A stretch of DNA of 64,000 nucleotides from Candidatus Limnocylindrales bacterium. GTDB taxonomy: Bacteria; Chloroflexota; Limnocylindria; Limnocylindrales; CSP1-4. A program made the position numbers and the translations under genes. The notes under the pieces were generated by a model that was not told where the DNA came from, did no database searches, and saw only the letters and a list, made by a program, of their open reading frames with translations. Shown here piece by piece: positions 19,578 through 30,967 of this stretch. How positions within the stretch are numbered: position 1 is the first letter of the stretch; each line of letters begins with the position of its first letter. The stretch covers positions 9,505 to 73,504 of the forward strand of contig JBEKCH010000004.1 of NCBI GenBank assembly GCA_050014975.1. The letters are read 5' to 3'.

Positions 19578-20819
19578 TCAACTCAGCGGGCGCGACAGGA
19601 GCAGCCGGTCCTCGCCGAGGGCCAGGTGGTGGCGGTCCACGGCGACGTCCGTGAAAAGGCTCGAGCGGAAGAAGGCGCGCGCGGCCATGGACGAGGGCTG
19701 GATCGCCGTGTCGGCGAGGGTCCAGGCGAGGAGGCGCCGGCAGCCGGACGATCCGGCCGCGGCGGCGATGGCATCGGTCAGGCGGCGGCCGATGCCGCGG
19801 CCACGCAGTCGCGGAGCCACGGCAAGCAGCGTCAGCTCCGCCGGCGCACGGCCGACTTCGTCGAAGGCCAGGCCCTCGAAACCGCGCGGCTCGTCGATTG
19901 CGCGCGGCCGATCCCAGGGCGCCCAGCTGGCAAGACCAACCAGCTCACCCGAGATCTCGGCCAAGAGGAGCTCGGACGCGGGAGGCAGCGAGCGGGCGAG
20001 CTCGGGGGCCATCGCGACCAGGAACCTTTCGATCGCCGATCGGTCCGCGGCAGTCGCGCGGCGGACCCGCGGCTCATCGGTCGAGGTCGCCGGCTCGGCC
20101 GCCAGCGGCTCTACCACCGGCCCGGGCACGCTCGGCTGCCGCACGCTCGCCTCGACCGCCGGCTCGGTCGCCGGCTCGACCACCGTTTCGGCCGCCAGGA
20201 GCGCCCCCAGCTGACCGAGCATTCGGGCCGTGGCGCCCCAGACCCGCTCTCCCTCGACCGGGTAGACGCCGTAGCGGATTAACCGCTGGCGAATGATCCG
20301 CTCGTCGAGCTCGACGGGGGCATCGGGCAGAAAGGCCTCGACCGGCGGCTCGATGATGCGGGCCACCTCGTCAGGGGCCGGGTGGCAGTCCGGGCGCCGT
20401 TCGGCCAGGGCCACCACGGGCGTCACGCGGAATCCCGATACGGGGATGAGGAAGCGCTCGAGCGCTCCGGTCACCCGCAGCCCACAGGCTGCCGGATCCA
20501 GGCCGATCTCTTCGGCCGCCTCCCGCAGCGCGGTGGCCACCGGGTCGGCGTCAGCCGGCTCGGCCGAACCACCGGGGAAGCTGATCTCGCCAGCGTGCGC
20601 ACTCAGCTCCGGGACGCGGGCCGTCAACAGGACGCGCGCCTCGCCCTCGCCGTCGGGAAAGAGCAGCACCAGCACCGCCGCCTGCCTGATCGGCGCCAGC
20701 GGCCGGGGCGGGAACAGGCCTTCGGGCGAGTCGATGCGGATCGGCGTCAGGATCGCCGGCGCGGCGGGCAGCTCCCGCGGCAGCGCCCGGAGCCTCTCCC
20801 GAACCAGCTCGAATCTCAT
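19578..20819 (-). CDS. Fusion protein: N-terminal NUDIX CoA-pyrophosphatase-like domain plus C-terminal GNAT acetyltransferase
   Basis: VLLTARVPELSAHAGEISFPGG plus REAAEEIGL (CoAse-type NUDIX signature) at the N-terminus. LLAVAPRLRGRGIGRRL acetyl-CoA-binding motif at the C-terminus. ATG at 20819. Confidence 0.7.
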   Translation of the reverse strand: MRFELVRERLRALPRELPAAPAILTPIRIDSPEGLFPPRPLAPIRQAAVLVLLFPDGEGEARVLLTARVPELSAHAGEISFPGGSAEPADADPVATALREAAEEIGLDPAACGLRVTGALERFLIPVSGFRVTPVVALAERRPDCHPAPDEVARIIEPPVEAFLPDAPVELDERIIRQRLIRYGVYPVEGERVWGATARMLGQLGALLAAETVVEPATEPAVEASVRQPSVPGPVVEPLAAEPATSTDEPRVRRATAADRSAIERFLVAMAPELARSLPPASELLLAEISGELVGLASWAPWDRPRAIDEPRGFEGLAFDEVGRAPAELTLLAVAPRLRGRGIGRRLTDAIAAAAGSSGCRRLLAWTLADTAIQPSSMAARAFFRSSLFTDVAVDRHHLALGEDRLLLSRPLS

Positions 20820-21450
20820 GCCTGCCGCGTGTCCTGTCTCTTCATTGCCGGGTGGCGTGTCGCCACCAGAAGGGCTCGAGCCCCGCGGTGAGTTCCGCCA
20901 TGATCCGCGTCCACGCTGCCGTCGCGTCACGGCGGATCGCCCGGTCGACCAGCTCTACCAATGGCTGCTCTCGCATCGAGCCCCATCGTGGAGGCTATGG
21001 TGCTGATGCTAGCCGCGGGCCTTGCGGAGCGCGAGCGGCCCGGCCAGCGGGCCTCATATCCTGCGGGGTTGTTCTGTGCATTAGATGTACGGAACCTGTC
21101 AACGGAGCCTGATGGGCCCGCGGGTGTGCATCGGACGCGAATGCGCGACGGGCCGGACCTGAACGCGCAGGCCGACTGGTCCTCTTCGTGCACCCTGCGC
21201 AACGTTCCGACAGATGAGGCCGGCGCGAGGACGCCAGAGGTCCGCCACGAGTCGAAGCTGTGCGCCACAGGCACGGGATCGACGTCTCTCCCGGCCTCAG
21301 GAGCACCGGGTGGTCGGATACGTGCATCTGGTGCAAGTCCGGGCGCTGACGCCGCCGTAAGTGCGCGATCTGTGCGCTCGGCGCACGGGACCGCCGTCGG
21401 CGGGCTCTTGTCGGCGGGTTCTTGCCGGCCGGCTCGCCCTGGGCCGCCTC

Positions 21451-24195
21451 CTAGTTGACCCGCTGCGGGCCCTCGTCCTCGGAGCGGTTCGGCGTCCAGA
21501 GGCGGTCCGCCGCGGTTGCGGCCGTGGCAGGTTCGCGAGCCGCTCTCTTGCGGGCGTCACGGCGCTCCCCCGCGTCGGCCACGACCGTGGCCTCGCCCGA
21601 GCGGAAGACCAGCACCCCGCCGATGGCATCGGCGTCGGCCACCACCGTGGAGCCCGGCTTGAACTCGCCGCGTAGCAGGGCCCGCGCCAGCGGGTTCTCC
21701 ACGAGCCGCTGGATCGTCCGCTTGAGCGGCCGCGCCCCGTAGGCCGGGTCGGTCCCTTCCCGAACGATCAGCGAGCGCGCCGCCGGCGTCAGCTCCAGCA
21801 CGATCTCCTGGCCCGCCAGCCGCCGGTGCAGGTCGGCGACCAGCAGGTCAACGATCGCTGCCAGGTCGGCGTCGTTGAGGGTGTGGAAGACGATCACCTC
21901 GTCGATCCGGTTCAGGAACTCCGGCCGGAACTGGACCCGCAGCGCTTCGGTGATCTGATTCTTCATCTGGTCGTAGGCCGTCGCGTCGCCGGCGTCGCCG
22001 CGCTCCGCAAAGGCTGAGATGAACTGCGACCCCAGGTTGCTGGTCATGATCAGGACCGTGTTGCGGAAATCGACCGTCCGACCCTGGCCGTCCGTCAGCC
22101 GTCCGTCGTCCAGCACCGCCAGCAGGACGTTGAAGACGTCCGGGTGAGCCTTCTCGATCTCGTCCAGCAGGACCACCTGATACGGCCGGCGGCGAACCGC
22201 CTCGGTCAGCTGGCCGCCCTCGTCGTAGCCGACATAGCCGGGGGGAGCGCCCACCATCCGCGAGACGGAGAACTTCTCCATGTACTCGCTCATGTCGATG
22301 CGGACCATCGCCGCCTCGTCGTCGAAAAGGAACTCCGCAAGGGCGCGCGCCAGCTCGGTCTTGCCGACGCCCGTGGGTCCCAGGAACAGGAACGAGCCGA
22401 TCGGCCGCCGCGGATCCTTCAGCCCGGCGCGAGCGCGACGGACCGCGTCGGAGACGGCCTGGATGGCTTCGTTCTGGCCGACCACCCGCTCGTGCAGCCG
22501 CTCTTCCATGTGGACGAGCTTGGCCGTCTCGCCCTCCATCAGCCTGGTCACCGGCACGCCCGTCCAGGCGGCCACTATTTCGGCGATCTCATCCGCCGTG
22601 ACCTCCTCCTTGAGCAGCCGGTTGGGCCCCGACAGCGCGCCGATCGCCGCCTCCCGCTCCTTCATCTGCTTTTGGAGCTCGGGCAGCTTGCCGTACTTGA
22701 GCTGGGCGGCGGTGCCGAAGTCCGCCTCGCGCTCGGCCTGGTCGATGCGCACCTGCAGCGCTTCGATCTCCGACTTGGTCGTCCGGATGGCCGAGATGGC
22801 GTCCTTCTCGACCTGCCAGCGCTGCTTCATGGCCGCGGCTTCCTCACCGACCTCGGCCAGCTCGCGCTCAAGGGCCTCGAGGCGGGCTTTCGAAGCTTCG
22901 TCCTTCTCCTTGCGCAGGGCTTCCCGCTCGATCTCGAGCTGGATGCGCCGGCGTTCGAGCTCGTCGAGCTCGATCGGCATCGAATCGATCTCCATCCGCA
23001 TCCGGCTGGCCGCCTCGTCGACCAGGTCGATCGCCTTGTCGGGCAGGAAGCGCTCGGAGATGTAGCGGTTGGAGAGCGTGGCGGCGGCAACCAGGGCCGA
23101 ATCGGTGATGCGCACCCCGTGGTGGACTTCGTACTTCTCGCGCAGGCCCCGCAGGATGGAGATCGTCTCCTCGACGCTCGGCTGGTCCACGACGATCGGC
23201 TGGAAGCGCCGCTCCAGGGCCGCGTCCTTCTCGATGTGCTTGCGGTACTCGTCGAGAGTCGTGGCGCCGATGGTGTGCAGCTCGCCCCGGGAGAGCATCG
23301 GCTTGAGCAGGTTGGAGGCGTCCATCGCCCCTTCCGCGGCCCCGGCACCTACGACCGTGTGCAGCTCGTCGATGAACAGGATGATCTGGCCCTCGGAATC
23401 CTTGATCTCCTTGAGGACGGCCTTGAGGCGTTCCTCGAACTCGCCGCGGAACTTGGCCCCGGCCACGAGCGCGCCCAGGTCCAGAGAGATGACCTTCTTG
23501 TCCTTGAGCGTCTCCGGCACGTCGCCGCGGACGATGCGCTGAGCCAGCCCCTCGACGATGGCCGTCTTGCCGACCCCGGGCTCGCCGATGAGGACAGGGT
23601 TGTTCTTGGTTCGGCGGCTCAGGACCTGGATGACGCGGCGGATCTCGTCGTCGCGGCCGATGACGGGGTCCAGCTTGCCGGCCCGAGCCTCAGCCGTGAG
23701 GTCGCGACCGTACTTCTCCAGCGACTGATAAGTAGCCTCGGGATTCGGGCTGGTGACGCGCTGGCCGCCGCGGACGCCGGCCAGGGCCTGCAGGATCGTC
23801 TCCTTGTTGGCCCCGTGGCGTTCCAGCAGCGCCTGGGCGTCGCCCCCGCCTTCGGCGATGGCAAGGAGCAGGTGCTCCGTGGAGACGTACTCGTCCTTGA
23901 GCCGGCGGGCTTCGTCCGAGGCCCGCTCGATGGCGCGCCGCACCCGCGGGTCGGCGGACAGGGAGGCGCCCTGGATCTTCGCCCGCTTGTTGAGGGCGGC
24001 GGCCAGCTCCCCGCGGAAGGCGGGTACGTCCACGCCAATGCGGCGCAGGGTCTCGGCCGGGATGCCGTCGTCGGCCTCGACGAGCGCGGCCAGGAGATGC
24101 TCCGAATCGAGCACGGGGCTCTGGAGCTCCTCGGCAAGGCGCTGGGCCGAGACGATCGATTCCTGGGCTTTCTGGGTGAAGCGGTCGAGGTTCAT
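21451..24195 (-). CDS. clpB: ATP-dependent chaperone/disaggregase ClpB
   Basis: Full-length pattern: Clp-N repeats, two AAA+ modules ([18 protein letters not shown]), long middle coiled coil, about 50-aa C-terminal extension. Confidence 0.95.
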
Positions 24196-24244
24196 GGCGT
24201 CTTCTCTCAGTGGGCCCGACGGCGCTGGGCCTCTGGATTGGCGA

Positions 24245-25424
24245 TTAGAGCTTACGAGGGTTGGGTTGGACGATCTGACGGAGGAATTCCTCGGCTGACT
24301 GACGCTGCCGGCCCTCCAGCTTGCCGGGCAGCACGACCTTGACTCGCACGTACAGGTCGCCGCAACCGTCGCCCTTGAGGCGAGGCATCCCCTTGCCGGC
24401 CAGCCGGAAGGTCTGACCCTGCTGAGTGCCCGCCGGGATCGTCAGCACCACGCGGCCGCCCAGGGTCTCGACCTCCACCTCGCCGCCGAGCAGCGCCTCG
24501 CCGAGGGCGATCGGCAGCTCGCGCGTCAGATCGGCGCCGTTGCGCGTGAAGATCTGGTGGGGCCGGATCTTCGCAACCAGGTACAGGTCGCCGGCGTCAT
24601 CGCCCGACCCGGCCTTGCCGCGAAGACGGATCTTGCTGCCCGTTTCCACGCCACGCGGGACCTTGACCTCGAGCCGCCGATCGCCGACCTGTATCAGCCG
24701 CGTCGACCCGTTGAAGGCTTCCTCCAGGCCCAGCTCGATCTCGACCTCGACGTCGCCGTGGCGCGCGCCGCGGCCGGCCGCTCGACCGGCGCCGTTGCCG
24801 CCGCGACCCACAACCGACTCCGTGGCGGCTCCGGCGCCGTCGCCGTGGAGGCGCGAGAACAGATCCTCGAGCGGATTTCCCCCGGCGCGTCGCGCCGCCG
24901 GCCCGGCCGCGGACGGTCCGCCCAGCCGTGGAGTCGGCCCCCGCGGCCGTTCCCGCGGCCCCGCTGGCGGCACGCGCGCCACCAGTCGCCGACGCGGCCG
25001 CCGCATCCGCGCCGCCGAAGAACATCCGGAAGAAGTCGGAGAAGTCCTCCGAGCCCGTGGAGTGGAATTCGTAGCGGACGTTGCCGCCCTGTTGCCCGTA
25101 GCCGGCGAACGGGCCGCCCGGCCCGAAGGGATCCCCGCTCCCGAACGGGCTGCCGGCGCCGCCCGCCGACCCGGCGCCCGCGCCTCCGGCCCTGTTGAAC
25201 TGATCCCAGTTCGAGCCGAGCAGGTCGTACTGCTGGCGCTTCTTAGGGTCGGCCAGGACCTCGTGGGCCTCGTTCACGTCCTTGAACCGGCGCTCCGCGG
25301 TCTTGTCGCCGGGATTGCGGTCGGGATGAAGCTCGCGGGCCAGCCGCCGGTACGCCTTCTTGATCTCCGCGGGCGTGGCCGTCCTGGGCACTCCCAGGGT
25401 CTTGTAGTAGTCCTTGTATTCCAT
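24245..25424 (-). pseudogene. DnaJ/CbpA-type J-protein split over two reading frames (frameshift or indel error)
   Basis: The frame starting at 25424 encodes the J domain (DYYKTLGV...HPDRNPGD...) and a G/F region, then reads into an Arg-rich nonsense tail. A second frame (track ORF 24245-25006) encodes the CbpA/DnaJ C-terminal substrate-binding domains ([23 protein letters not shown] ... [10 protein letters not shown]). The frame switch must lie between about 24880 and 25020. Confidence 0.8.
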
Positions 25425-25527
25425 TGGTCACCGCCGTCATTGCCCACGGCCGGCCGAAATCGGGTGCCGGAGCGACCTGTCGCTATTGGATTGTCGGTCC
25501 GCAGGCCGGCGGTGTCTAAGCCGGCCG

Positions 25528-25659
25528 TCAGACCGCCCACTGCTCACTGTCGGCCGCCTGCTCGGTGGCGGCGTGCATCGGATCCGAGTTCAACCGTTCG
25601 GCGAACGCGAGCGGCTCCTTGGGATCGACCGACTTCAGATCGTCTCCGTTCTTGTCCAT
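25528..25659 (-). CDS. Small ORF (43 aa), paralog of the 80-aa ORF upstream, function unknown
   Basis: Found by hand because it is below the track cutoff: MDKNGDDLKSVDPKEPLAFAERLNSDPMHAATEQAADSEQWAV. ATG at 25659 preceded by ggggaggagag. TGA at 25528-25530. It shares a 31-nt identical core and both termini with ORF 25742-25984. Confidence 0.5.
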   Translation of the reverse strand: MDKNGDDLKSVDPKEPLAFAERLNSDPMHAATEQAADSEQWAV

Positions 25660-25741
25660 CTCTCCTCCCCTGCCGAATGCGTTGACCATCTACTGCGGGC
25701 CGCCGGGCCCCTTCGACTCGGAGGAGCGGTCTGGTCCGACC

Positions 25742-25984
25742 TCAGACGGGCCAGTTCTCCTCGTCCGAGGCTTCGTCACTCGCGACGTGGATCGGATCCA
25801 ATCGCCGCTTGCCGCAGAGTTCGCAATCGTCGGGGACGCCGGCTTTTGCGAACGGAATCTCCGGTCCGCCGCCCACGCCGGGTCCGAAGCTCTTGGGAAT
25901 GTTGTAGGGCAGGTTCATCCTCTCGACGAACCCATGCGGCTCCTTGGGATCGACCGACTTCAGATCGGCGCGGTCCTTGTCCAT
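25742..25984 (-). CDS. Small ORF (80 aa), paralog of the 43-aa ORF downstream, function unknown
   Basis: MDKDRADLKSVDPKEPHGFVERMN...CELCGKRRLDPIHVASDEASDEENWPV. ATG at 25984 preceded by gaaggggagatcag. It lies between lon and dnaJ on the same strand. Confidence 0.55.
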   Translation of the reverse strand: MDKDRADLKSVDPKEPHGFVERMNLPYNIPKSFGPGVGGGPEIPFAKAGVPDDCELCGKRRLDPIHVASDEASDEENWPV

Positions 25985-26095
25985 CTGATCTCCCCTTCCT
26001 CAGCGTTGATGAGCGGCGACCGACCTAGACCATAACCCCGCCAGCACGGTGGCCGGCGTCTCCGCCGGCCACCCGATGACTGTCTGTTCCGACTC

Positions 26096-28621
26096 CTATG
26101 CCAGGGCGGGCGGCTGATCTACCGGCGGCGGGAAGCCGGGCCGGACCCGGCCTTCGGTGCCGGTCTCCGCCTCGGGCTCCTTGCCGCCACCCGCGGGCTT
26201 GCCCGGTTCGGCGCTGAGTGGCATCGGCTTGCCCCGGAGGGCCGCCTCGAGCACCTGGTCCATGTTCTCGACCAGAACGAGCTTGATCTGCTTGCGGATC
26301 TCCTCGGGGATGTCCCGCAGGTCTTTCTCGTTCTTCTTGGGCAGGATGACCATCTTGGCGCCGGAAAGGTGGGCGGCCAGGATCTTGCTCTTCAGGCCGC
26401 CGATCGGCAGAACCCTGCCGCGCAGGGTGATCTCGCCGGTCATCGCGACGTCCTTGCGGACCGGGATGCCGGTGAAGGCGCTGATCATGGCCGTGGCCAT
26501 CGTGATCCCCGCCGACGGGCCGTCCTTGGGGATGCCGCCGGCCGGAACGTGGATGTGCAGCGTGTTCTTTTCGAAGACCTCGCGCTTGATGCCGAGCTGG
26601 GCGGCGTGGGCGCGGATCCACGACAGACCCGCCCGGGCCGACTCGCGCATGACCTCGCCGAGCTGGCCGGTGAGGATGAAATCCTCCTTGCCCTCCATGA
26701 GCGTGACCTCGATGGCGATCACGTCGCCGCCGACCTCGGTCACGACCAGGCCGGTCGCTGCGCCCGTCTGGTCCTCGGACTCGAGCTCGCCGTACTCGAA
26801 GCGCTGCGGCCCGAGGTACTCGACGAGCTTCTTGACGTCGACCACGGTCTTACGCTTGCGGCCCTCGGCCACTGCCCGGGCCACCTTGCGCATGACGTTG
26901 GCGATCTCGCGCTCCATGTTCCGGACGCCGGCCTCGTGCGTGTACGAGCGAACCAGCTCGACCATCGCCTCGTCCGTGATAGCGATCGTCTTCTCGCTGA
27001 GGCCGTGGTTCTTCATCTGCTTGGGGATGAGGAACCGCTTGCCGATCTCGATCTTCTCGGTCTCGGTGTAGCCCGGCAGCTGGATGACCTCCATGCGGTC
27101 GCGCAGCGGCGCGGGGATCGGGTCGAGCAGGTTGGCGGTCGTGATGAACAGCACCTTCGAGAGGTCGAAGGGCACCTCCAGGTAGTTGTCCTGGAAGGTG
27201 TTGTTCTGCTCCGGATCGAGAACTTCCAGCAGCGCCGAGCTCGGGTCGCCCCGGAAGTCCATACCGATCTTGTCGACCTCGTCGAGCATGAAGACCGGGT
27301 TGTTCGAGCCGCCCGTCTTGACGTTCTGGATGATCCGGCCGGGCAGCGCGCCGATGTAGGTGCGCCGATGGCCGCGGATCTCGGCCTCGTCGTGGATGCC
27401 GCCCAGGCTCATGCGCACGAACTTGCGGCCCATGGCCCGAGCGATACTCCTGCCGAGCGAGGTCTTGCCGACGCCGGGCGGTCCGACGAAGGCGAGGATC
27501 GGGCTGCGCAGCGTCTGGGCCAGGCTTCTCACGGCCAGGTACTCGAGGATGCGTTCCTTGATCTTCTCCAGGCCGTAGTGGTCCTCGTCGAGGATCTTGG
27601 CCGCCGCCTTAATGTCCAGGTTGTCCGTCGTGGAGACATCCCAGGGCAGGGCGACCAGCCAGTCCACATAGGTCCGGATGACGCCGACCTCGGGCGAGGC
27701 CGACGGGATCCGGCTCATGCGGTCGACCTCTTTGAGCGCCCGAGCCTTGACCTCCTCGGGCATGCCGGCCTGTTCGACCTTGTCGCGCAGCTCGTTGATC
27801 TCGGCCTGCTGCGGGTCGTCCTCGCCGAGCTCGCGCTGAATGGCTTTCAGCTGCTCGCGCAGGATGTACTCCCGCTGGGTCTTGTCCATCTCGGACTTGA
27901 CCTCGGACTGGATCTTGCCCTTCAGCTCCAGGATCTCGATCTGGCGGCCCAGGAAGGTGGAGACGATCTTGAGCCTCTCCAGCACGTCCGTCGTCTCGAG
28001 GAGCTGCATCCGCTGCTCCGTGGAAAGATCCGGGCTGTAGGCGACCATATCGGCCAGGAGGCCGGGCTCGCTGATGTTGCGGGCGGCCACGGCGGCCTCC
28101 GGCGGCACGGGCGCGCCGTTGGCGACGTACTGCTCGATCTGGGCCTGGACGGTGCGCATCAGGGCCTGGACTTCGATGCCCTCCGGCGTCACGTCCGGGA
28201 GATCTTCGACGCGCACGACGATGTAAGGACTGGTCTGCGCAAAACCCACGACCCGAAGCCGGCCCTGGCCCTGGACGATGGCCCGGACGGTGCCGTCCTG
28301 GAGCTGCACGACCTGGGCGATCTTGGCCAGAGTCCCGACCGTGAACAGCTCGGCCGGGTCTTCGATCTCCTCGCGTTCGGCCTCGCGCTGGGTCACCAGC
28401 GCGATCGGGCCGCTGGCGGCCACGGCCGCGTTGAGCGCGGCAACGCTCTTGTCCCGCCCCACCTGGAGCGGCACGATCATCTCGGGGAAGATGACCGTCT
28501 CGCGCAAGGCGACGAGGGGGAGTTCCCGGACACCCGGCGCGTGGACCTGCTGCTCGCCGCTCGGGACGTCATCGGCGTCCTGGACGCGCTCGTCGTCCTG
28601 TTCGGCCGGCCGGTCAGTCAT
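26096..28621 (-). CDS. lon: ATP-dependent Lon protease (LonA)
   Basis: LON N-domain, AAA+ (GPPGVGKTS), proteolytic domain with PKDGPSAG (catalytic Ser) and K in the GGLKSK region. Gly/Pro-rich C-terminal extension. Confidence 0.95.
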
Positions 28622-29144
28622 TGGATTCTCCTGATCGAGTGGTGGTCACGCGGGTGGCCACTATACGGGTGATGGGTCGGGCGGGCGGCTGAGCCGGCCA
28701 CTCGGTGTGGCCGGCGGCCCAGTTATTCTCCGTACCGTCGAATCCGTCTCCGTCGGGAGGGGTTTCGGCTGCGCGGCGGTTCGTTGTGTCGGTGGATTCA
28801 CCGGTTTCGGGCTGGCGCGCGGCAGCGACCGCGGCTTCTCGAGCCCGCGTGTCGTCGAACAGGGCCTCGAGAATGTGCGTCCCGAGTCTCTCTTCGAGCT
28901 CGAAGAGCAACTTCACCCCGGCGAGGTTGACGCCTCTCTCTTGAGTGAGGCGTCGGATCCACAGGATCCGACGGATGTCGTTCTCGGAGTAGAGGCGGAT
29001 GTTCGTCGGCGTCCGGGCAGGCGCCAGCAGGCCCTCGTCTTCGTAGATCCGCAGGGTGCGCGGGTGAACCTGGACCAGGCTGGCCGCGACGCTGATCACG
29101 AAGCAAGGGCGCCCCGGATCCCGCTGGAAATGCCGATCGGACAC
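28614..29144 (-). CDS. hspR: MerR-family heat-shock repressor HspR
   Basis: FVISVAASLVQVHPRTLRIYEDEGLLAPARTPTNIRLYSENDIRRILWIRRLTQERGVNLAGVKLLFELE is a typical HspR HTH plus dimerisation helix. I prefer GTG 29144, 7 nt after the hsp20 stop. ATG 29195 or 29192 are possible. The stop overlaps the lon start by 8 nt. Confidence 0.8.
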   Translation of the reverse strand: MSDRHFQRDPGRPCFVISVAASLVQVHPRTLRIYEDEGLLAPARTPTNIRLYSENDIRRILWIRRLTQERGVNLAGVKLLFELEERLGTHILEALFDDTRAREAAVAAARQPETGESTDTTNRRAAETPPDGDGFDGTENNWAAGHTEWPAQPPARPITRIVATRVTTTRSGESND

Positions 29145-29151
29145 CGTCTGC

Positions 29152-29637
29152 CTACTTCGTCGCGGCCTTGGCCGATTGCGTATGTGGGCCATCACCGGAT
29201 GTGATCTTGATCTGCCGCGGCTTGACCTGCTCGGCCTTCGGGATGCGAAGGGTGAGCACGCCGTCCTCGAACGTGGCCGTGGCCTTGTCCGGCTCCAGGC
29301 CGGCGGGCAGGGTCAGCGTCCTGCTGAACGCGCCACGCCGGATCTCCTGGATCAGCGTGGATCCCTCCTCATCCTTTCGGGAAGAGCGGGTCTCGCCGGC
29401 AATCGTCAGAGTGTTGTCCTCGACGGTGATCTCGACCTCCTCAGGCTTGACGCCGGGCAGGTTGGCCTCGAGGACGAGGTCCTCGTCCGTGGCGTAGACG
29501 TCCATGGCTACGGGCTGATGGTCGCCCCAGCTCCACGTCCGCGGGTTCACGAAGCTCTCCTCGAAAAGGCGATCCATCGCCTGTCGCAGCGAGAGCAGGT
29601 CGCCAAAGGGAGCCGAAGAGCGGCGAACTATCGTCAT
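29152..29637 (-). CDS. Small heat-shock protein (Hsp20 / alpha-crystallin family)
   Basis: Alpha-crystallin domain: VDVYATDEDLVLEANLPGVKPEEVEITVEDNTLTIAGE...FSRTLTLP...ATFEDGVLTLRIPK. SD ggaggtg upstream of ATG 29637. Confidence 0.9.
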   Translation of the reverse strand: MTIVRRSSAPFGDLLSLRQAMDRLFEESFVNPRTWSWGDHQPVAMDVYATDEDLVLEANLPGVKPEEVEITVEDNTLTIAGETRSSRKDEEGSTLIQEIRRGAFSRTLTLPAGLEPDKATATFEDGVLTLRIPKAEQVKPRQIKITSGDGPHTQSAKAATK

Positions 29638-29717
29638 CTTGCACCTCCAACCGGCCGGGTCTTGACTCTCTGGCGGCCCACCGTGGGCCTTTCCGACCGA
29701 CCGAATGACGCACCCAC

Positions 29718-29748
29718 AACATAGAACCTTGACAAGATCGTTGTCAAG
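29718..29748 (-). promoter_or_regulatory. Putative sigma-70-type promoter of the heat-shock block, overlapped by a HAIR-like HspR operator
   Basis: Minus strand reads TTGACA (29747-29742), an 18-nt spacer, then TATGTT (29723-29718). The perfect palindrome CTTGACA-N7-TGTCAAG (29728-29748) overlaps the -35. The canonical HAIR is CTTGAGT-N7-ACTCAAG. Confidence 0.5.
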
Positions 29749-29983
29749 TGTGTTGACTGAGTAGAAGCCTTATATCTGACGGCGGTTCCGTACGGTGGGC
29801 CGCCGCGGGATCGAGGCCACCGCGGGATCCGGCCGCGGCGCTACCCCACCGGGGCCAGCGGCAGCGGTCTCCGAGAGCCCGTGCGAACAGAGGCTCTTGC
29901 GCTGCCCCACCCGGAAATGCAGACTTCGCTAATGGTCGCTGGGGGCGCCCATCGGGGTGCGGCGACCGTCCCGGGGGAGTCGG

Positions 29984-30880
29984 ATGTCGAGCGCTACCGA
30001 CAAACCGAGCACAGCGTCCGCGCAGGCTGAGGAAACGGCCAGCTGGGTCGCGGCCGCCGAGGGCTTCGTCGCGTGGGCGACCCAGTCCAAGGCGGCCAAT
30101 CTCGACTACAGCTGGCGCAGCCTGGGCGAGGTCGACCGGCTGATGGAGGAGATCGCCGCCAAGAACCCCATCAGCCTCAAGACTCACCTGGGCCTGGCCG
30201 CCTACGTGGGCGAGGTCCTCGTCCGCCAGTTCGGCGGGCGCTGGGCCACCGGCGAGCACTACGGGGAGGTGATGCCGCCGGAGATCGCCCCCAAACGAGC
30301 CAAAGCCAGGTTCGAGCCGGCGCAACCGACACAGATGGTCGAGAAGCGCCTCACGCATGGCGACACCCTCCAGCACCAGGTTTTCGAGCAGAGCCGCGCC
30401 TGGGCGGTCCAACACGGACTCGTGGCCGGGACGACCGACCTCGACGGCCCGGCTTCGATGATGCGAATGGCTGCCGACAGTTTCGTGAAGCCGGCGATCG
30501 CGGGCGGAGCGGCGTGGCTCGACTACTCGCCCCAGAGCGTCGATCGCCTGGACGAGCTGATCGCGGAATCGTGGCCGGGCGTGCCCGAGAAGGGCACCTA
30601 CAGATCGATGGTGCCAGCCATCGGAGCCTACGTCGGCGAGGTCCTGGTGAAGCACACCGGCGCCCGCTGGATCCGCGACCCGAAGGAAGGCTACGGCGTG
30701 GAGCGCGACGGGCAGGTGGCGTTCCCGATGGCCGAAGTGGCCAAACGCTTCGAGCTCGGACCGGAGCACGCCATCGGCCGCTTCTACCGCGACGTCGCGA
30801 GCCGCTGGCGCACGAGCAAGACGCGCACGCGGCCGACCCAGAACGAGAAGCGTGGGCTCTTCGGCCGCGGCCGCGGATAG
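29984..30880 (+). CDS. Hypothetical protein made of two copies of an unrecognised domain
   Basis: Internal duplication: LDYSWRSLGEVDRLMEEI...LAAYVGEVLVRQFGGRW versus LDYSPQSVDRLDELIAES...IGAYVGEVLVKHTGARW. ATG at 29984. Confidence 0.5.
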   Translation: MSSATDKPSTASAQAEETASWVAAAEGFVAWATQSKAANLDYSWRSLGEVDRLMEEIAAKNPISLKTHLGLAAYVGEVLVRQFGGRWATGEHYGEVMPPEIAPKRAKARFEPAQPTQMVEKRLTHGDTLQHQVFEQSRAWAVQHGLVAGTTDLDGPASMMRMAADSFVKPAIAGGAAWLDYSPQSVDRLDELIAESWPGVPEKGTYRSMVPAIGAYVGEVLVKHTGARWIRDPKEGYGVERDGQVAFPMAEVAKRFELGPEHAIGRFYRDVASRWRTSKTRTRPTQNEKRGLFGRGRG

Positions 30881-30967
30881 CCCCGAATCGGCCGTGTGAC
30901 CGGAGCCCCGAAGCCCGGCGTCCGCCAGCCCCGGGCCCTGCCAGGCCACGCGGATCCGAACCCGGCG

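Follow-up and report, generated by a model that had tools for sequence, protein, structure and literature searches.

What are two very small open reading frames (ORFs) doing between a protease gene and a co-chaperone gene, and are they genes at all? This question is raised by a 64,000-nucleotide (nt) stretch of a Candidatus Limnocylindrales genome (contig JBEKCH010000004.1), referred to here as the window, where two small ORFs, sORF-A and sORF-B, lie between lon and dnaJ in a block of stress genes. The initial annotation had read them as tandem paralogues and had imagined for them a role as adaptors, regulators or sentinel substrates of Lon or ClpB. All features described below are on the minus strand unless the plus strand is named, and positions are those of the window.

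sORF-A is a genuine gene that encodes an 8.7-kDa acidic protein, as we conclude from its homologues of similar length, the arrays of related copies in about 20 loci, the Shine-Dalgarno (SD) sequences, the genic GC profile, the excess of differences at third codon positions and the ratio of nonsynonymous to synonymous substitution rates (dN/dS). The ORF at 25742-25984 translates into the 80 amino acids first proposed and is a full-length member of its family. A search of 5.8 billion protein clusters returned 22 homologues with 60-83% identity, almost all of 76-85 amino acids and none of them annotated, and the total number of homologues comes to about 30, with lengths of 75-90 amino acids. They align from end to end, with insertions and deletions that are confined to the Gly/Pro-rich middle and that come in multiples of three. 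Purine-rich SD sequences had been noticed before both ORFs and are indeed present, GGAAGGGGAG at 25990-25999 for sORF-A, in a leader that is invariant in three other loci (L011, L012 and L014), and GGGGAGGAG at 25662-25670 for sORF-B; each family copy with an assignable ATG start has such a sequence. The GC content at the first, second and third codon positions (GC1/2/3) is 0.65/0.42/0.81 in sORF-A and 0.66/0.40/0.86 in sORF-B, resembling that of lon and clpB, and the overlapping ORFs on the plus strand have a non-genic profile. Differences between copies number 10062 at third codon positions versus 6520 and 6035 at the other two. The initial annotation had proposed looking in related genomes for conserved open frames, for lon-sORF-dnaJ synteny and for a dN/dS below 1; the frames and the synteny, clpB included, are kept, and the median pairwise dN/dS of the family is 0.37.

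The protein is marked by a small set of strictly kept residues. Throughout an alignment that reaches down to about 25-40% identity only H17, P26, C54, C57, H66 and W78 are invariant, and conservation is at least 90% at F19, E21, R60 (numbered 62 in the first row of the alignment), D63 and P79. The family pattern can be written as PHxFxER...NxP...C-x2-C-x8-H...acidic tail...W-P-[VL]-COOH, with VDPKxPHxFxERMNxPYNxP as the conserved N-terminal motif and [HNQR]-W-P-[VL] as the C-terminus, nearly every member ending in V or L. In sORF-A, the codons for C54-x2-C57-x8-H66 occupy 25787-25825, the codon for H17 lies at 25934-25936, and the W78-P79-V80 motif, which follows the acidic tail, is encoded at 25745-25753. 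As two Cys and two His are among the six invariant residues, we argue that C54, C57 and H66, completed by H17, which is invariant in full-length members, probably form a Cys2His2 metal site, with zinc as the likely metal. AlphaFold2 (AF2), supplied with the family alignment, predicts a largely disordered protein with one knuckle: the mean predicted local distance difference test (pLDDT) score is 60.7, and the chain is modeled as coil nearly from end to end, apart from a small knuckle formed by residues 53-60 (the best block, 79) and a single helix at residues 64-72 that bears H66, such that the C54-H66 region has the highest confidence of the model. With an isoelectric point (pI) of 4.7, a grand average of hydropathy (GRAVY) of -0.74 and no hydrophobic run above two residues, the sORF-A product is, judged by this composition, a cytoplasmic protein and not a membrane or secreted one.

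No family had been recognized for the two ORFs at the outset, and none was found among Pfam, NCBIfam, PADLOC or the PDB sequences. Neither sORF-A and sORF-B (Pfam, E <= 0.01) nor the divergent members had a match in the first three. When 13 diverse members were compared with Pfam at E <= 10, all sub-threshold matches were to zinc fingers and none was significant; those to zinc ribbons were isolated, at E >= 0.012, each in one member. A profile search of all PDB chain sequences (E <= 10) gave a designed Kelch protein, no stretch of which passed the E-value threshold by itself, and a match at E = 1, both of which were treated as spurious. A Foldseek search with the AF2 model returned only C2H2/RING matches at E >= 4.6, which were not used as evidence.

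The second ORF, sORF-B (25528-25659), gives the 43 amino acids originally quoted and is a paralogue of sORF-A, as had been supposed: BLASTP aligns the two with E = 9e-12, and a 37-residue gap is the only large difference. The core of 31 identical nucleotides that they were said to share is real (25936-25966 and 25611-25641). The gap itself was misread, since the 37 codons said to be inserted in the longer copy have in fact been deleted from the shorter one: every other member except one (P0035) is 66-90 amino acids long, a range that excludes longer mis-called or fused members, and has the middle segment. sORF-B thus lacks codons 25-61, and the alignment of the codon rows places its deletion junction at 25587-25588, between codon 24 (AAC) and the codon at family position 62 (TCG). 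Nor do the two ORFs form an equivalent pair, as the long copy is ancestral and the short one is without four of the six invariant residues, P26, C54 and C57 being absent and H17 replaced by L. As to the matching W-x-V tails, W and V occur in both proteins, but P79 is replaced by A in sORF-B, where the family motif W-P-[VL] has become W-A-V. The loss of CxxC together with the change of H17 to L is consistent with these residues working together. An alternative ATG upstream, at 25689, would give 53 amino acids and is chosen by some gene callers; we favor the 43-residue start because the N-termini of the family and the position of GGGGAGGAG fit it. The peptide SVDPKEPLAFAER is unique to sORF-B. 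The same 43-residue ORF was found without variation in several independent assemblies of one population, and therefore it is not an assembly artifact, and a search for the short form in other populations returned the window's own protein only.

We regard sORF-B as probably a degenerating remnant, which would be unable to form the metal site and would act, at best, as a competitor having the two terminal motifs only. Its first 24 codons are closest (about 89% nucleotide identity) to the type-1 copies, which are the orthologues of sORF-A; compared with the type-1 copies of L005, L011, L012 and L014 as reference, this segment has six amino-acid changes in sORF-B versus one in sORF-A, and the dN/dS of sORF-B is about 1.0 against L011, L012 and L014 and 0.59 against L005. 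Could the short form instead be a selected mini-protein that functions as a competitor through its two terminal docking motifs? Its start codon, SD, frame and stop are intact and its GC3 is genic, and a second in-frame deletion has taken out nearly the same segment elsewhere. That second short form, P0035 (41 amino acids, L027:1117-1242), differs by a 120-nt in-frame deletion from the full-length copy 3 of the array in L002 and L016 (L002:3279-3524), with flanks that are otherwise 99-100% identical, and we read the event in L027 as independent of the one in sORF-B. However, the chance of two in-frame events is about 1 in 9, and the junction in L027 carries a 3-nt microhomology, typical of slippage. 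In addition, neither short form is known from more than one population, and the substitution of the near-invariant H17 and P79 in sORF-B, with a dN/dS of about 1, speaks against selection. A functional mini-protein is therefore possible but, in our opinion, doubtful.

How far does the family extend? A profile search of 1.84 billion cluster representatives yielded 20 proteins at E <= 1e-3, among which P0036, P0040 and P0041 are unrelated repeat proteins and do not belong to the family. The N-terminal motif of the family, SVDPKAPHAYVERMNLPYNIP, resembles a tetratricopeptide repeat (TPR), RLDPKDAHAYMNRGNAYYNLG, which occurs eight times in P0036, a 748-residue kinase-TPR protein; this resemblance is probably that of a short motif only. 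In the GTDB species set the only carriers are four metagenome-assembled genomes (MAGs) from fens named "Chloroflexi bacterium". A scan with the intact DnaJ showed that MAGs with the name Candidatus Limnocylindrales have the operon too, a metagenome scan gave eight loci only, and a degenerate DNA pattern aimed at distant members in named genomes matched only unrelated Bacteroidia MAG contigs. On these searches the family is an undescribed one, limited to metagenome contigs of Chloroflexota and to MAGs from fens, and its hosts are uncultured bacteria of peat and soil.

Arrays of its members are present in about 20 loci, in the order hsp20-MerR/HspR-lon-[sORFs]-dnaJ-clpB wherever the flanking DNA suffices. 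There is one copy in L005 and L009; two in L003, L011, L012, L014, L018 and L029; three in L004 and L010, and at least three in L013; and four in L001, L002, L016 and L027. A profile scan of the 64-kb window found no third copy. In every lon-linked locus the array is on the strand of lon and starts 14-111 nt past its stop codon, and the distance from its end to the dnaJ start is constant, 102-106 nt, in nearly all loci. The array is recombinogenic: P0008 is a 123-residue fusion of about 1.5 units, the first copy of L012 (L012:629-871) is a mosaic with a type-1 N-terminus and a type-3 middle, and L027 carries the in-frame deletion described above. The array is also accessory, because close relatives keep the operon without it. 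In 12 related MAG loci lon, dnaJ and clpB are kept without any sORF, nine of them also showing hsp20 and hspR, and no sORF remnant was seen when every frame of the lon-dnaJ spacers of sORF-less relatives was inspected. On a rough neighbor-joining tree of Lon, DnaJ and ClpB the presence of the array is patchy.

The neighbors of the array, with lon on one side, the gene of a J-protein on the other and clpB beyond, were named correctly from the beginning, as their Pfam domains confirm. The operon order in the window is hsp20-hspR-lon-[sORF array]-dnaJ-clpB, with all genes on the minus strand. The first gene, hsp20 (29152-29637; Pfam HSP20), is followed by that of a MerR-family, HspR-like regulator (28614-29195; MerR_1), the true start of which is probably downstream of 29195, and by lon (26096-28621; 841 amino acids; LON_substr_bdg, AAA, Lon_lid and Lon_C), which immediately precedes the array. 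Past the array come a class-B dnaJ (24245-25424), with DnaJ and DnaJ_C domains in two frames and no zinc-finger domain, and clpB (21451-24195; 914 amino acids; Clp_N, AAA, AAA_2 and ClpB_D2-small), the last gene of the block. The dnaJ gene of the window is broken into two frames by a 1-nt insertion, an extra A near 24878 in the run GGGGGAAAT. Since four other assemblies of the same population are without the extra base and encode an intact class-B DnaJ of 392 amino acids, the frameshift is specific to the window sequence, and would be due either to strain variation or to an error in sequencing or assembly. The ORFs that flank the block, at 29744-30949 (minus strand, 401 amino acids) and 20293-21006 (plus strand, 237 amino acids), have no Pfam or NCBIfam match.

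Is the block under heat-shock control? We find this plausible, given its HspR-like regulator and a unique, conserved repeat at its promoter that resembles the HspR-associated inverted repeat (HAIR). Upstream of hsp20, at 29718-29748, there is a promoter-like sequence, TTGACA-18-TATGTT, the -35 element of which is overlapped by the perfect inverted repeat CTTGACA-N7-TGTCAAG, with the architecture of HAIR. The pattern CTTGA-N11-TCAAG has this single match in the window, where 0.02 would be expected by chance, and a repeat of the same type occurs upstream of the operon in L001, L003, L004, L014, L029 and L050. The HAIR-type promoter of the initial annotation is supported by the HAIR-like repeat on the hsp20 promoter and the HspR-like regulator. 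The canonical consensus, CTTGAGT-N7-ACTCAAG, has no match with up to three mismatches. The best NCBIfam matches of the regulator are two HspR models, at 88-93 bits, scores that fall short of the curated thresholds of these models (105 and 300 bits).

The sORFs are located about 3.7 kb downstream of the hsp20 promoter, and a single uninterrupted transcript across the block is not assured, because a hairpin stands between lon and sORF-A and a promoter-like element between sORF-B and dnaJ. The hairpin, at 26048-26073, between the lon stop and sORF-A, has a perfect 11-bp stem and a GAGA loop (GGCCGGCG-GNRA-CGCCGGCC). The same hairpin follows lon in the sORF-less L037, L039, L040, L041 and L043, whereas the other loci with sORFs do not have it between lon and the array. 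Its role may be that of a lon terminator, an attenuator or a stem that stabilizes the mRNA. The promoter-like element, (T/G)AGACA-17-GACAAT, at 25490-25518, is conserved and lies in the spacer before dnaJ (25425-25527 in the window), which is highly conserved as DNA in its equivalents of L001-L016; the hexamers are kept, and the distance between them varies in L002. There is also a small conserved hairpin within this spacer, in what would be the 5' untranslated region. A conserved RNA structure was considered for the spacer and set aside, as its long-range helix breaks in L002 and compensatory change affects two of 31 pairs, and the promoter-like reading is preferred. A search of 24000-30500 with Rfam gave no match.

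What, then, might the protein do? We propose a layered explanation in which we are almost sure of the anatomy of the family but not of the partner; Lon is the partner that we favor, as a serious but tentative candidate. The sORF-A protein would be made in heat or proteotoxic stress and would dock, via its two conserved linear motifs, on a proteostasis machine encoded at its flanks. On Lon it could act as a stress-timed modulator of activity or as a decoy substrate, with a heat- or oxidation-labile metal site as a possible switch. The presence of conserved motifs at both termini of an otherwise disordered protein suggests docking on a partner, and the genomic context of the array points to one involved in proteostasis. 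Lon is favored among these because the array comes right after lon, because the promoter-like element, in its spacer of constant length, intervenes between the array and dnaJ, because small regulators of Lon have precedents in LarA and HspQ, and because of an anticorrelation with the tail of Lon itself. In this clade Lon has a disordered, Pro/Glu-rich C-terminal tail (26096-26140 in the window), to which five of seven sORF-less in-group genomes (L037, L038, L040, L041 and L050) and none of the 14 sORF-bearing loci compared (from the set L001-L029) add ...EPxLAxWSxE, an extension with a Trp close to its end; outgroups have different tails. The anticorrelation is suggestive of a link between the W-P-V tail of the sORFs and Lon, or it is a coincidence, and it may represent perhaps two or three independent events.

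Of the precedents, LarA (DUF1150) is an allosteric heat-shock activator of Lon in alpha-proteobacteria, of about 89 amino acids, which is also a Lon substrate (PMC10665427, PMC11882793). LarA and the sORF family are both small, accessory and lineage-restricted; LarA is induced by heat shock, and its extreme C-terminus is conserved and proposed to dock on Lon. However, the five-residue degron of LarA has bulky valines before a terminal His (PMC10665427), whereas in the sORF family an acidic stretch leads up to a final W-P-V/L. A Cys2His2 site is absent from LarA, which is not known to occur in tandem arrays, and what ties the sORF family to Lon is the adjacency of the genes. The family shows no sequence similarity to LarA, and no Pfam match to DUF1150 was found for either sORF (E <= 0.01) or for 13 diverse members (E <= 10). 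HspQ, a specificity-enhancing factor and substrate of Lon in enterobacteria (PMC6719616; PMC10665427), is likewise a small heat-shock protein that both modulates Lon and is degraded by it, but it has a folded YccV-like domain and is not encoded beside lon. The sORFs have no Pfam match to the HspQ/YccV family, and the PDB profile search found no related chain.

Several observations weigh against Lon as the partner, or against parts of the explanation on which it is built. The array is absent from L043 and L037, the Lon proteins of which are about 94% identical to that of the window, and no residue of Lon, DnaJ, ClpB, HspR or Hsp20 that perfectly discriminates tracks its presence. The tails, NWPV in sORF-A and QWAV in sORF-B, do not fit the His-terminal degrons of Lon (PMC11986505, PMC10665427), the characterized C-terminal class being x-[LI]-[LIV]-H, with two aliphatic residues before the terminal His (PMC11986505). 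Distant members lie outside the lon operon, on short contigs that carry no lon: a divergent member (L028:876-1121) follows folE, for GTP cyclohydrolase I, next to an IS110-family transposase gene, and a divergent tandem pair (L030:890-1472) follows a histidine-biosynthesis gene. In the window a stable hairpin separates lon from sORF-A. Furthermore, C54 is replaced by F in P0024, the AF2 model is of low confidence, and dN/dS is high, 0.5-0.9, between the closest orthologues.

Could the adjacent class-B DnaJ be the partner instead? In the manner of CbpM or DafA, the family would then bind DnaJ, or a complex of DnaK and DnaJ, and keep it inactive up to its release by heat or substrate. CbpM of E. 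coli (11 kDa) is encoded with cbpA, binds the J-domain of its product and is MerR-related (PMC4063869). DafA of Thermus thermophilus assembles DnaK and a type II DnaJ devoid of a zinc finger into a DnaK3-DnaJ3-DafA3 complex (PMC3727329) and has been described as a CbpM analogue and thermosensor (PMC3125180). The likeness is that these proteins of about 8-11 kDa are encoded in chaperone operons, beside a zinc-finger-less DnaJ, and the sORF array is always directly upstream of just such a protein, with a J-domain and DnaJ_C, across a spacer of constant length. In contrast to CbpM and DafA, the sORFs lie upstream of dnaJ, after lon, and their products are multi-copy and predicted to be disordered with a knuckle. 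They show no MerR-type similarity in Pfam or among PDB sequences, nor any similarity to CbpM or to a PDB chain, and the AF2 model is mostly coil; the search of cluster representatives gave no more than about 20 proteins, the majority of which clearly resemble the family. A promoter-like element lies between the sORFs and dnaJ, whereas cbpM is co-transcribed with cbpA, and the array is absent from relatives with a DnaJ that is 70-76% identical. A DnaJ modulator would suit the genomic context about as well as a partner of Lon; we consider it unlikely.

Alternatively, the protein might need no dedicated partner and be an autonomous stress protein, either a holdase with a zinc or thiol switch or a protective disordered protein that acts on unfolded clients, with tandem copies raising its dosage. 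The precedents are of the Ruc and Hsp33 type. Ruc (Rv0991c of M. tuberculosis) is a small, redox-regulated, zinc-binding and largely disordered heat-shock chaperone, the gene of which is grouped with genes for chaperones and proteases in many phyla, Chloroflexi included (PMC7448276). The sORF family has both a predicted disordered remainder and the linkage to chaperone genes; its members are small and acidic, with a conserved Cys-containing putative metal site, in copy numbers that vary from one to four, and the distant ones are away from lon and dnaJ. However, Ruc has an N-terminal zinc ribbon with four Cys and a variable tail, whereas the sORF family has two Cys only, as H...CxxC...H, and both of its termini are conserved; no zinc-ribbon model matched significantly, and none of NCBIfam matched at all. 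Ruc is also widespread, unlike a family confined to one clade, and the strict W-P-V/L C-terminus and PHxFxER N-terminus look like specific docking motifs more than like sites for clients in general. An autonomous holdase would fit nearly as well as a modulator or decoy of Lon and has, in our judgment, a low probability. As far as these comparisons go, the family stands outside DUF1150, YccV, the MerR-related CbpM and Ruc, all of which it resembles in kind, as a small accessory protein from a locus for proteostasis under stress.

There is also a bolder reading, which we think rather improbable. In it, the sORF proteins would be a new class of intrinsically disordered regulators with a metal switch, placed at the triage point between degradation by Lon and refolding and disaggregation by DnaJ and ClpB, so as to tune the choice of pathway in stress. 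Copy number would set their dose, termini-only variants such as sORF-B would compete with the full-length forms, and, where relatives lack the sORFs, the Trp-bearing extension of Lon would stand in cis for the sORF tail.

Finally, many of the ORFs that arise in GC-rich DNA are spurious, some of them long and on the opposite strand, and tandem small paralogues are typical of precursor arrays of ribosomally synthesized and post-translationally modified peptides (RiPPs), but chance ORFs, an opposite-strand gene, a conserved RNA element, RiPP or bacteriocin precursors and secreted peptides are all very improbable, and the RiPP precursor, secreted peptide, chance ORF and opposite-strand gene were rejected on conservation, GC profile, neighbors and hydrophilicity: conservation is at the protein level, with indels of three or its multiples, the third-position excess and a genic GC profile on the minus strand only; Rfam has no match; no locus has a modification enzyme, transporter or immunity gene, the neighbors being of proteostasis only; the termini are both conserved and variation falls in the middle, unlike a leader followed by a hypervariable core; and neither a signal peptide nor a hydrophobic stretch is present, with hydrophobic runs of two to four residues at most.

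What is new here, as far as sequence comparison can tell, is a clean, previously unannotated family, strongly conserved in its motifs, between lon and dnaJ of a stress operon. The small modulators of class-B J-proteins known to us are CbpM and DafA. Dedicated regulators of Lon are also few, LarA and HspQ among them (PMC10665427). The family is tiny and its hosts are uncultured Chloroflexota of peat and soil, yet nature offers in it an allelic series, with sister genomes that have or do not have the array, loci with one to four copies and deletion variants reduced to the termini, of a protein small enough to be synthesized. If the sORF family is a regulator, it would represent a new, independently evolved way to tune the proteostasis machines.

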